From: Octopus vulgaris
Taxonomy: Eukaryota
DNA length: 64,000 nt
Assembly: GCA_951406725.2 (NCBI GenBank)
Contig: OX597820.1
Coordinates: forward strand, 91,264,001-91,328,000
Direction of reading: 5' to 3'
Part shown: piece after piece, positions 9,456-61,013 of the stretch
Numbering within the stretch: the stretch's first letter is position 1
How the letters are laid out: the number at the start of each line of letters is the position of its first letter
Made by a program: the position numbers and the translations under genes
Notes under the pieces: generated by a model
Told to the model about the DNA's origin: nothing
Seen by the model: the letters and a program-made list of their open reading frames with translations, nothing else
The model's database searches: none

Positions 9456-10245
9456 GTTTAAAGCTTGAAAGGTATCTTTCGCTAACAAATTTCGTTTGTG
9501 ATTGCATCTTTTCTGAGTACTGGACAGTATTGTATTCTATGGATTTAAAGGTTTTTCTCAATAACTTCTAACTTATTTCAAAGAATGCGTATCCATGATG
9601 AAGAATACTTTAGCGTTTCTGTAATTCTAAAAGTGTGTAAATCTTAATCTAATCTATAAATCGGAAATAAATTTGTGAAGAAATACTTATTACTTGAATA
9701 CTATATATAAGTGTTTTTAATTATTGATCTCTTTTATTCCTCCTTTATAATTTCAATGAATGTGACTTCTGTAGCAGATAAATTTTAATTATCTAATTTG
9801 GAATGGCAGCAATAAAGTTGTTTCTTGAAAGTACCTGTTATATGGAAATTGAAGTTAAGTTATGTAGGTTTCAAAATCCATTCAAGATAGCACATATCTC
9901 CGTAAAATTTTCTAAAAGCTTTCAGTAAAGCAAATTTTATCGATATCAATACTTTTATATTTATCTAATTTTGACTTGAATGCTGAAATACATATTCTTG
10001 CATTTAACAAAAAAGAAATTTACAGATTTCATTTGTTGTGAACAGTGAATAGTATTATTTTTCACTGTTATAAATCCGATTGTTAATACTTGATACTTTT
10101 TGTGTTTTTTTTTTAGCGACATGGGTAATGATATCGAATTTAATCCATAAAAGAACACTATGCTTAAAACATGATTTACGATAAAAAAAATATTTTAGTT
10201 GCATAAAAATGTTTTGAGGTATTGATGCTATGGCATTTGCAACGA
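9456..10245 (-). pseudogene. Three exon-like segments (10024-10245, 9694-9834, 9456-9626) of the putative decayed gene
   Basis: AG/GT bounded; translate VANAIASIPQNIFMQLKYFFYRKSCFKHSVLLWIKFDIITHVAKK, TFKKQLYCCHSKLDN*NLSATEVTFIEIIKGGIKEINN* and ITETLKYSSSWIRIL*NKLEVIEKNL*. Confidence 0.35.
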
Positions 10246-11088
10246 CTGTTACATTAACAGTAGAGCAACTAATTTCTTTTCACTTATATGCTATTGAAAA
10301 GTTCATAGTAATAGGGAAGTAAAACGAAATAGAATTATTATAAACCCTGGAATGTTAAAATTTGAATTATTTTTTTATATAAATGATCAATTTCAATGTC
10401 AAATGTATCGTAGATAATGATGTATAACATGATTTTTGTTGAATGTTTGTAATGAGAATAGTCTAACAAGCTATAATTTTATTGACTTGAGGGTAAAAGA
10501 TGATAATGGGTGTAAAACAAATCGACCCTAAGGAGATCTACATTAAGACGTCAAGTGGGAACTTAAATACCGGGCGCAAATTTGCCCAACTCTCAACTAA
10601 TTCTGATAACTAAGATTTCCGTCACACGTTTGAGATCGAAAGAAAGAACACAAAGAAAGAATGTTAAATTTAGTTAGACATTTTACCAATAGTTTAACTG
10701 CAGTATTTTTACTTTAACTGGTTATAATTAAACCATTAATATTTCCTTGATGACCAAAGGAGATATAAATAGAAATATTAATGGCAATAACATTATTTAA
10801 ATCATGATAGCTATGTTGATGTAACTGCGCATATTTATTGTGGATGGGAATTAATAAAAATTTACTTTGAGAGAAAGTACTCAATACATAAGGTAGAGCT
10901 GTTTCAGTTATACTGCCTTCACTAAGTGAACCCGAATGCTATTTCCCATTAATACCACAGGTAACGTTACAAATAAGATTTAATATGAAAATATAGAGTT
11001 GAGAGAGAAAAGAATCTGCAACTGCTTATATTTTAAATATGATTTAAATGAATTAGCTACATTTAAGTATACTGGCATTGGCGATCTT

Positions 11089-11151
11089 CTACTACTACTA
11101 CTACTACTACTACTACTACTACTACTACTACTACTACTACTACTACTACTA
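11089..11151. repeat. (CTA)n microsatellite
   Basis: Perfect CTA run. Confidence 0.97.
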
Positions 11152-11300
11152 CACACTCATTCATGCTTCATGCTTACATACATGATTACATTCATGCTTA
11201 CAAACATACATGCATAAAAATGTATCAAATTCTCCATTAATATTTAAACCGCTCTTCTCTTCTCATCAAAGAAATAAAAAATGGTTTTATTCATTATCTT

Positions 11301-11605
11301 CAGCCTCGGGCTGACCAAAGCTTTGTGAAAGGATTTGGTAGACGGAAACTGAAAGAAGCCCATCGTATATATATATGCATGTGTGTAATGTTTGTGTGTC
11401 TGTGTTTGTCCCCCTCCCAAACATCGTTTGACAACCGATGGTGATGTGTTTACGTCCCCGTAACTTAGCGGTTCGGCAAAAGAGACCGATGGAATATGTA
11501 CTAGGCTTCCAAAGAATAAGTCCTGGGGTGTATTTGCTCGACTTAAGGTGGTGTTCCAGCATGGCCGCAGTCAAATGACTGAAACAAGTAAAAGAGTAAA
11601 GAGTA
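11301..11605 (+). mobile_element. SINE family A, 5'-truncated
   Basis: GGATTTGGTAGACGGAAACTGAAAGAAGCCC...CAGCATGGCCGCAGTCAAATGACTGAAACAAGTAAAAGAGTAAA. Confidence 0.92.
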
Positions 11606-11610
11606 ACTAC

Positions 11611-11760
11611 TTTGAGTTCATTGACAAATAATGCTGGAGATCATTTAGTGCATTTGCTGTTTTCCATGTAGAATGATTTCCTGTTAAGGATACTTTAAGG
11701 ATCATGAACCTTTTGGGTTTTAAGAATACTCCAAGAGTACTTTCTATTGATGTAGAAGTT
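11611..11760 (-). pseudogene. 150-bp exon-like segment with an open frame
   Basis: Acceptor TTTTCTCATATTTGCAG, weak donor GTAGTT; reads TSTSIESTLGVFLKPKRFMILKVSLTGNHSTWKTANALNDLQHYLSMNS without a stop. Confidence 0.4.
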
Positions 11761-57832: not shown

Positions 57833-58010
57833 TTGTACACACACACACATGTGTATATGGTTATATGTGTCTGTGTACGTGTATAAATATATACATTTAT
57901 AAGAATGATGCTAGAGCGATAAAAATTTGAAAATGATAATTTAATATCGAGTAGTTGACATAAATGTGGAGTGACTTAACGTTTCGACTATAAGTCCTTC
58001 CTTCGTATAT

Positions 58011-58146
58011 TGATCCGATCAACAAAACAGACCACCTGTGAAATTTACGTGCAAGTGGTAGCATAGACATGCACATTTAAGGTAGTTCTTAAGGAAATTC
58101 AGCGTGGCAAAGAATTTGACGGGGCTAACCATTTGAATTACTGGTA
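58011..58146 (-). mobile_element. SINE family D 3' fragment
   Basis: TGATCCGATCAAC..AACAG.C..C..GTGAAATT.AC.TG.AAGTGG matches the region from 25087. Confidence 0.75.
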
Positions 58147-59664
58147 AAACACAATTTAGGCAGCTTAGTGCAAAGAGCAATATAGGTATATATACACACA
58201 CACATGCAGAGGCGCGAACGCATATATGCGTATGTATACCAGCTGGAATATTAAAAAATCCCTAAGTAAATAATTGAAAAGATAATTGTAAAATGTTTGG
58301 GGAAAAATATTATTTCTTGGTTTGAAAATACTAAATTCTGGCGTCATAATTTTTGAGGTAACATTCTCGTTTATTCGACGTATCTGTGTAGTCGTTTCAA
58401 ATAGGCTTGTTGACGTTTTGAAATTTTTTGCCTGCAAATGTTATTAAGCTAGTTGCTCAACATACTTTAAATGTAATAATTGTTTGTCCACATCCACTTG
58501 AACCGCCAATTTTCTCAAAAATACGAAGTGTTTCCTTGCATGACGTGATAAGTGAATTAAACGATTAGCTTGACACAATGTATGCGGTAGAAATAAAATA
58601 ATTTTACAAGCGTTAAAAGTTATCCAATTCGTCTCACTCTGCTATATAAAGTGAAATTCATCAAGCACTTAAAACGTTGATGACTAATGATAAAAATAGC
58701 CTAACAGCAACATTATCGACATTTCAGGAATTTTTCGAACCATGTGTTGAGTGTGTGTGTGTGTGGGTGGGTGTGTATGTGTGTGACTTCAACTTTGAGC
58801 ATTATTGTTAATTCAAACGAACGTGTAGAGGCATGAATAAAATTTGTAAAGTATCGTTAATATTCGATGTATCTTTAAAAGCAAAAGATTAAAAAAAATT
58901 CTGAACATGTGATGACCATCTTGGTAGTAAACATTAAAAATTTCTTGAAAGTATAATACGTAACAGCGTCCATAATCTAGGTATTCGGAATGCTTTTCCT
59001 GATGCACGTCTGTGTTGTTTTTTTTTTCATTGAGAGAACTTCATTTTTAATTATGAATCCAAGATCTTAAACAATGTTTAGATTTTGTCCATCACTCGCT
59101 TTAACACTACTTACTGATCTTTAGGGGCCTTTTGCAAAAATCCAGCGTGTTGCAAGCGTCTGGGCTACTCCAACGCTTCGTGAATAACTTTCTGCCTTCA
59201 TTCGACAAGCATCTGTGGGTTTTAAAAGCGGGTCTTTGGAACCGCCTTATTCCTCGTGACAAAAAGTAATTACGTTTGGAATTCTCTTGCATATGCATAT
59301 GGACATTGGTTAAGACGCCAGCATACATAATCGCATACATACATACGCATATCCTCTCCTATACACACATACACACGTATACACACACATACATATTTAC
59401 ATACTTACATATATATGTGTGCGTGTGTGTGTGTGTGTGCAAATTCAGTAGGTAAATTCAAAATAATTTGCTCCCAATGCTGTGCTTTCCGACGTGATCA
59501 GTGAATTCAGACTTGCTTTTATCACCAGATCCGCTGCAACCAAATGTGATTTACGCCTGACGTAACAAATATATATGTTTATATTTGTTTCTAATTTTAT
59601 TGTTTGTATTTATCACCAATGGAGAACCTAGAAGCTAGATTCTGTAACTAGAATTGAGTCGGAA

Positions 59665-60092
59665 TATGCGTGACTGTGTAGTAAGAAACTTGCTTCCCAA
59701 GTACTTGGTTCCGAGTTCAATCCCACTGCATGGCACATTGGGAAAGTGTTTTCTATAGCCGGGGGCCGACCAAAGCCCTGTGAGAGGATTTGGTACACGG
59801 AAACTGAAAGAAGACCGTCGCATATATATATATATATATATATATATATATATATATATACATACATACATATATGTGTGTGTGTCTTTATGACTATGTT
59901 TGTCCCCACTCCATTGCTTGAGCCAATGTTAGTATGTTTACGTCCCCGTAACTTAGCGGTTCGGTAAAAAGATATCCCATCAAATAAGTACCAGGCTTAC
60001 AGGGAGTACATCCTGGGGTAGATTTCTGCGACTAAAATCAGTGCACTATCATGGTCACAGTCGAATGATTGAAACAAGTAAAAGTATAAAGA
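59665..60092 (+). mobile_element. SINE family A, diverged full length
   Basis: GTGACTGTGTAGTAAGAAACTTGC...GAGTTCAATCCC...GATTGAAACAAGTAAAAG. Confidence 0.9.
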
Positions 60093-60219
60093 AATGTGTG
60101 TGTGTGTGCATTCCAACTGTGAACATACACACACATACACACATATATGCACGCACACACACATACACATGTATGCATGCGCACATACACACACACACAT
60201 ACACGCTTGCACATGCACA

Positions 60220-61013
60220 TGCTTATTTTCTTCATTGATTAAAGTAGAAATTTTCTCCGTGTTGACATCATAAGAATTTATAAACTTCGAAAGAACCTGA
60301 AATATTTCTTTGTAGGAACGGTGAAACTCGAAGCTAAGAGAGCTATAAGTTGTACTGTGTAGATATTGACTTAAAAACCTTTTGGAAAGGAATAATCGAA
60401 AGAGGTTATTATGAGCTTACGTTAGTGGATTTTGAAATATGTTAAAAAGAATACGTACTGCAGTATTTTGTACAAACATTATCTAAGTATGCTGATACTA
60501 CGCAGTGAGTATCTAGCAAATTGGAAAATAAACTTATATTGCAACCAACAGTGTCAGTAGAGAGAATAATGCTCGTGAAAGGAATATTCATATTTTAAAC
60601 TAAGTCTTTTGTAGAGACTTTTGTTAAAGATATTATTGAAAATATAAAAGTAAAAATAATTTTAATTTTTGAAGTTTAATATTAATATAAAATACATAGT
60701 AGTGATCTCGATTAATATTACTTTTAAGCTTAATAAATATCTTAGTGTATTTCACGTTATATTTCGAATTTGTAAATTTCTCAGCTTTCGCAGTGTAGCA
60801 TAGATTGAAATGACATTCCACTTAAGAAACGTGTTCCTAGAATAGAAACGATAGATTTTTTTTAAAGGAGATATAATAATATACACTGATAAATATACAT
60901 TTTTCTTTCTATGACAGAATAGGTTCAAGTGCAATTCAATGATCCTTTTGAGGTACACATGGAAATGAAGGCCGATGATATTGCCTTTTTGTGATTCCAT
61001 GCATTAGTTAGAC
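60220..61013 (-). pseudogene. Three exon-like segments (60899-61013, 60421-60599, about 60220-60296)
   Basis: LTNAWNHKKAISSAFISMCTSKGSLNCT*TYSVIERK; MNIPFTSIILSTDTVGCNISLFSNLLDTHCVVSAYLDNVCTKYCSTYSF*HISKSTN|GTAAGC; TTTCAG|VLSKFINSYDVNTEKISTLINEENK. The last two join in phase 0. Confidence 0.42.

Follow-up and report, generated by a model that had tools for sequence, protein, structure and literature searches.

A candidate core of an old unprocessed pseudogene within a 52-kb series of exon-like segments in Octopus vulgaris

A stretch of 64,000 nucleotides (nt) of the Octopus vulgaris genome (contig OX597820.1, here C7:91,264,001–91,328,000; the whole stretch is called the window, and coordinates given below refer to it unless a contig is named) contains a series of exon-like segments on the minus strand, which a first-pass annotation had read as about 16 exons of one large dead gene running from 61013 to 9456. 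The contig is one of 227 in the 2.80-gigabase genome, and genome searches were made against these contigs. The guanine-cytosine (GC) content of the window is about 33%, and microsatellites and short repeats are abundant. All 12 splice sites named in the annotation were present, all on the minus strand: GTAAG donors follow 60421, 52308, 21618, 20505, and 20227, a GTATT donor follows 9456, and AG acceptors precede 61013, 60296, 51510, 20724, 20407, and 18953. The scoring matrices for these sites were derived from 50 kinase-exon donors and acceptors of the same genome, for which the training scores are in-sample (donors spanned 0.5–11.9 bits and 49 of 50 acceptors reached at least 3.7). Five of the six donors scored a typical 7.8–8.4 bits, and that after 9456 scored 1.7. 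The absence of G at position −1 is normal here, as only 10 of 24 GTAAG donors have it. The acceptors at 51510, 20724, and 18953 were acceptable (13.5, 7.8, and 5.3 bits), and those at 20407, 60296, and 61013 were weak (1.9, 0.8, and −1.3 bits).

The joins 21618/20724 and 20227/18953 were compatible in phase, and the join 20505/20407 created a TGA, as had been claimed. They connect four pieces in linked phases, 21840–21618, 20724–20505, 20407–20227, and 18953 to about 18771, separated by introns of 893, 97, and 1273 nt; the frames and edges of this core (21840–18771) were chosen after inspection of the sequence. The likely dead exon C (21618–21840) has a GTAAG donor and two in-frame TGA codons, and its uncertain 5′ edge was taken from a blind scan. 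It is followed by a likely intron of 893 nt (20725–21617; 28% GC) that ends in a pyrimidine-rich TAG acceptor and is in phase 2 on both sides. The likely dead exon A (20505–20724) carries stops at 20627, 20612, and 20534, and a likely short intron of 97 nt (20408–20504) with 18% GC and a CAG acceptor lies between it and the likely dead exon B (20227–20407). Exon B is the best preserved, having no stops and one frameshift, and a 13-nt tandem duplication at 20274–20301 breaks its frame. A likely intron of 1273 nt (18954–20226), in phase 0 on both sides and holding an interspersed repeat at 19560–20043, leads to the likely dead exon D (18771–18953), which has three stops and an undefined 3′ edge; no donor of at least 6 bits for exon D was found in 17900–19000. 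All of these exons and introns are on the minus strand. The GC content of the exons was 0.30–0.37, compared with 0.18–0.29 in the introns. A further upstream exon is possible at 21963–22234 (minus strand), where scans picked differing donors (22154 and 22012) and a hand-picked frame scored negative.

The coding signal of the core was measured with two codon models derived from separate gene families of the genome, one trained on kinases and the other on LicD and CCA enzymes. When exon B was taken as two halves, the frame predicted from the splice sites was the best of the three minus-strand frames in five of five core pieces with both models (for exon C, 9.6 and 5.6). The sums over 243 codons were 24.3 with the kinase model and 20.2 with the LicD/CCA model, corresponding to 0.10 and 0.083 per codon, where held-out living genes reached 0.095 and background stood at 0. 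Stops made up 7 of 244 codons, against 6.4% in background (P=0.013), and the codon z score was 3.5 before any selection correction. The 5′ part of exon B reached P=0.001 against the best-of-three-frames background. When 344 donors were ranked by upstream coding score, that of exon B was 11th and that of exon C 17th. In a blind chain scan of both strands over 464 kb, later repeated with more masking, exons 21840–21618 and 20724–20505 were recovered unaided. Judged from the nucleotide sequence by itself, the core is likely, short of certain.

Twenty sequencing runs from 12 studies, under six species labels, matched parts of 20210–21800, and four of them were aligned over 20190–21830: one from the same species (contig X2) and relatives D, E, and F. 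The same-species run is possibly the assembly's own source, yet it consists of short reads, and the relatives are independent. Contig X2 spans 20190–21830 in one piece with three differing letters and two gap letters, and its kinds of substitution (A>C at 21676, C>T, and G>T) are unable to remove any stop of exon C or A. Because the stops in this interval were kept in short-read contigs, as a check for assembly errors proposed in the annotation revealed, they are not assembly errors; the disabling lesions in exons C and A are real and fixed. At 21676 all four runs, the same-species one included, have C where the window has A, which is either a private allele or an assembly error.

Relative F differs from the window at 111 of 1623 bases. 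The substitutions in relatives were read from the best-supported 40 of 161; because changes of lower support appear among these, the changes shared by E and F in 20202–20892 are probably all included. The exon A stops at 20627, 20612, and 20534 were untouched by these 40 substitutions, and the GT of the 20505 donor was changed in both E and F. In relative F, 1 nt is missing at 20666 in exon A and, as judged by bin depth, 1 nt within 21675–21729 in exon C. The gap at 20666 was considered as a restorer of the 20505/20407 phase and rejected, since the join requires phase 1 and the gap yields phase 2. Inside the 13-nt duplication, 8 nt at 20289–20298 are missing in F and, as bin depth implies, in E, and D appears to have the longer form. 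Their absence in F puts both halves of exon B in one frame, according to frame arithmetic by hand, with a one-in-three chance of doing so by luck. Among the codons listed as changed, 2 of 10 in exon A and 1 of 8 in the initial part of exon B carried synonymous changes. The divergence of relative E was alike in an exon-rich contig (53/691) and in intronic contigs (26/413 and 35/444). The shared stops, the lost donor, and the mostly non-synonymous changes implied that the region was already evolving neutrally when these species split. As the stops are apparently common to relatives about 7% distant and the donor has been lost, the gene would have died before that split.

These results are best explained if the core is an ordinary old unprocessed pseudogene without a name, a reading to which we assign a probability of about 0.55. 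The first-pass annotation had proposed such a pseudogene for the whole 52 kb, and the proposal held for the 3-kb core, by its codon structure, frame-restoring 8-nt difference, and neutral-looking divergence, and failed for the rest. The core would comprise four exons in a row from a single-copy protein gene on the minus strand that once functioned, was disabled in place, and then decayed neutrally, gathering stop codons, short indels, and an inserted repeat; no protein product would be made today. Duplicated (unprocessed) pseudogenes retain an exon-intron layout with lesions. The core would be like them in layout and is unlike them in that no parent copy was found by DNA or peptide search: in the 227 contigs, the DNA and two peptides gave self matches only, although distant paralogs could be missed by such searches. 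The annotation's suggestion of a dead duplicate was thus not borne out, and we infer that the core pieces are exons of one gene that was lost in place. In these respects the core would resemble unitary pseudogenes, which in one account likewise are unprocessed, bear introns, are disabled by stops and frameshifts, and have no functional counterpart in their genome (PMC2864566). That account bases the status on conserved synteny together with a functional ortholog from another species, by which standard the core would be a candidate at most. No functional ortholog, which the annotation's other suggestion of a lineage-specific gene loss would also call for, was found with queries that were short and decayed, in searches that need shared words or high scores.

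The time of death was estimated from the stops. In a neutral simulation, about 0.25 substitutions per site produced 7 stops per 243 codons, and 0.1 produced 3.4, so that the 7 stops in 243 codons would fit roughly 0.1–0.3 substitutions per site since death. The lower end of the range is favored because the donors are intact. By a calibration quoted in a published analysis, a distance of 0.09 corresponds to about 25 million years and 0.2 to about 56 million years (PMC13282606). As a rough estimate, this would place the death some tens of millions of years in the past. More tentatively, the core may be the last trace of a gene of an undescribed family that was lost by octopuses at that time and is still alive in squids or other molluscs, which would make it a datable loss, specific to octopods, of an uncharacterised protein; we consider this proposal possible but rather unlikely.

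Several observations weigh against the pseudogene reading. No homologs of the core were found in any of the searches described below. To connect with the exon that follows, exon A requires another old frameshift, unseen, close to its 3′ end; its 3′ part scored poorly (donor rank 266 of 344), and the acceptor at 20407 is weak. For exon D, whose frame is the best of the minus strand in both models, two plus-strand frames scored higher. Two extra pieces added to the core were unsupported, the z scores falling from about 3.7 and 2.8 (calculated by hand) to 2.4 and 2.2. Among the chains of the blind scans, the core ranked 11th of 134 and, after more masking, 20th of 232, 17th of 170, and 12th of 132, reaching the top tenth only, and 7–10% of background chains scored at or above its level. 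A scan by stops only left it outside the top 12 of 57 minus-strand chains, and a plain codon-likelihood gene finder chose GC-rich stretches and missed it. The core score of 42.9 was at the bottom of the range of kinase genes mutated by 10% (42.3–60.1) and inside the range of their antisense strands (28.7–68.5), although these controls score too favorably, those genes having served to train the matrices. Finally, three intact GTAAG donors exceed the expectation after 0.25 substitutions per site (about 2–3%, by hand).

The strongest alternative is that everything, including the core, arose by chance, unique DNA rich in adenine and thymine yielding phase-compatible, stop-poor pieces between AG and GT from which the best-looking were picked. 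Besides the background chains that match the core score, the blank homology searches, and recognition scores in Atlas below the level of known families (1315 and 1088, for pieces of 36 and 43 amino acids (aa)), the density of such pieces speaks for it. Exon-like pairs were counted as acceptor-donor pairs with a stop-poor frame in the 38,971 unmasked bases of the 52-kb span; there were 35 on the minus strand, 42 on the plus strand, 27.5 ± 6.4 in 12 shuffles, and 31–33 (scaled) in four flank-strand controls. Unmasked GTAAG occurred 16 times on the minus strand and 34 times on the plus strand. Three stricter settings gave minus-to-plus counts of 20:21, 10:6, and 4:6, and of the four settings only the strictest stop-free one favored the minus strand (10 against 6, with 4.1 ± 2.1 in shuffles). 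Exon-like pieces were thus as dense on the plus strand, in shuffled sequence, and in the flanks, an outcome that the annotation had itself named among those refuting its claim. However, chance would have to account for a frame-specific codon structure at the level of living genes in two independent models, for the P value of exon B and the frame-restoring 8-nt difference, and for a gap of 97 nt with 18% GC that exactly separates two pieces. We consider this explanation possible, though on the unlikely side.

Outside the core, the same counts told against the claim of about 16 exons of one gene between 61013 and 9456: there was no strand excess, and the outer joins failed. The outer segments tested (n=17) were picked by eye, since the annotation had given only 12 coordinates, and were evaluated with a composition-corrected codon score that 55–85% of control exons pass at 10–20% decay. 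At P<0.05, 1 of 17 passed on the minus strand (P=0.049) and 2 of 17 on the plus strand. The claimed join 52308/51510 (51330–52400, minus strand) has strong splice signals and no coding signal on either side (P=0.80 and 0.87; donor rank 271 of 344 for upstream coding score). At the join 60421/60296, the acceptor lies in an old interspersed repeat (60247–60400) with at least 41 other matches of 74–87% identity among the best 40 of 517 candidates scored, so that the description of the segments as non-repetitive was wrong here; the acceptor AG was missing in both of two aligned copies. The interval 60247–60400 and the start of the claimed 60296 exon are repeat and lie outside any gene. A single gene of about 16 exons would gain from a real core, which would imply more exons, and from the single-copy state of 13410–15790 and 51060–52090; with one outer join in a repeat and the other without coding signal, we consider it improbable. 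The remaining segments, which reach 61013 on one side and 9456 on the other, would be mostly background, with splice signals that arose by chance in unique DNA and in DNA from old repeats.

That the core derives from a transposon, either a decayed one with introns or one that had captured host exons, is also improbable. In the 464 kb, the majority of long frames resemble transposon proteins, and a repeat contains one of the named joins; by contrast, the core was single copy by both DNA and protein. No protein-level match to the core was found in the flanks or in 68 control loci, nor any Pfam match to a transposase or reverse transcriptase, although such searches miss very old low-copy families. 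As a transposable element remnant, only 60247–60400 would qualify, through its at least 41 other matches; a repeat comparison in which the best 40 of 12409 candidates were all common repeats is silent on the unique parts. Among the long frames listed, no long host exon was recognized within 200 kb on either side of the window. Within the window, 34250–35600 (plus strand) is richer in GC, with overlapping open frames of up to 153 aa, the highest coding-like score of the window, and sub-threshold Pfam matches only; its short motifs resemble those of a decayed retrotransposon. An open frame of 159 aa at 42207–42800 (plus strand), without a match in Pfam or in the local flanks, is taken by us to resemble the end of a reverse transcriptase of a long interspersed nuclear element. 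A frame of 160 aa at 55041–55523 (minus strand), blank in Pfam, has what we assume to be a GIY-YIG-like motif as in Penelope elements, and 55229–55534 overlaps a dispersed repeat. Just downstream of the 51510 acceptor, at 51280–51400 (minus strand), is a motif that we take to resemble the end of a Tc1/mariner transposase; no second copy of this motif, near 51350, was found in two frames searched.

That the gene is alive and its breaks are sequencing or assembly errors is very improbable, since the only opening for it, the two gap letters of contig X2 at unplaced positions, stands against a contig that spans 20190–21830 whole, substitutions that remove no stop of exon C or A, for which the idea is refuted, and extra lesions in the relatives.

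For the identity of the core, word searches with queries of 127–5250 aa returned 1, 28, and 17 candidates, of which none reached E≤10, and phmmer with a 42-aa piece against 1.84 billion representatives was blank. Pfam, NCBIfam, PHROGs, PDB, Atlas, and metagenome and viral contigs were also blank for the core pieces; for Pfam, 51 minus-strand frame pieces in 9001–63100, with repeat-rich gaps left out, and 6 plus-strand pieces were read through. These blanks are weak evidence, because each query was either one short exon or a single frame read through. Matches below the cut-off (ANAPC2 with 17 bits against 23, PhoU, and K1) were treated as noise. A nucleotidyltransferase of the pol-beta fold (LicD/fukutin, PF04991, or CCA enzyme, PF01743) was suggested by a likeness by eye in which a glycine-rich strand end precedes an acidic-x-acidic motif, and was rejected as no better than shuffles: among its own shuffles, the joined core reading ranked 1352 of 1798 with the LicD profile and 442 of 1696 with the CCA profile. 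Both profiles were built from the members of the same genome, and the core locus was absent from those family searches.

If the pseudogene reading is true, it would describe the loss of one gene before several octopus species diverged. Its value hangs on naming the gene, and an unnamed core says little. Among the publications listed, no octopus pseudogene survey was found, as judged by titles or the beginnings of abstracts. The clearer lesson is methodological, namely the high density of chance exon-like chains; because phase-compatible chains of this kind are dense by chance, ghost genes in this genome need homology first.

The family searches gave some observations on other loci. LicD-family genes are clustered at C3:57.65–57.82 megabases (Mb) and C12:72.12–72.13 Mb (4 and 3 of 13 matches), each being one long open frame. 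CCA-enzyme-like loci are at C9:90.78 Mb and C11:49.01–49.03 Mb; one is a single frame of 451 aa and the other is apparently split by introns, and the two are possibly a retrocopy and its parent. At C12:28.43–28.62 Mb, 10 or more matches to the kinase domain fall in long open frames (578–1759 aa), some with a stop, and a similar kinase cluster lies at C18:66.71 Mb. In the window itself, 57046–57691 is a direct duplication of about 300 bases in two adjacent copies.

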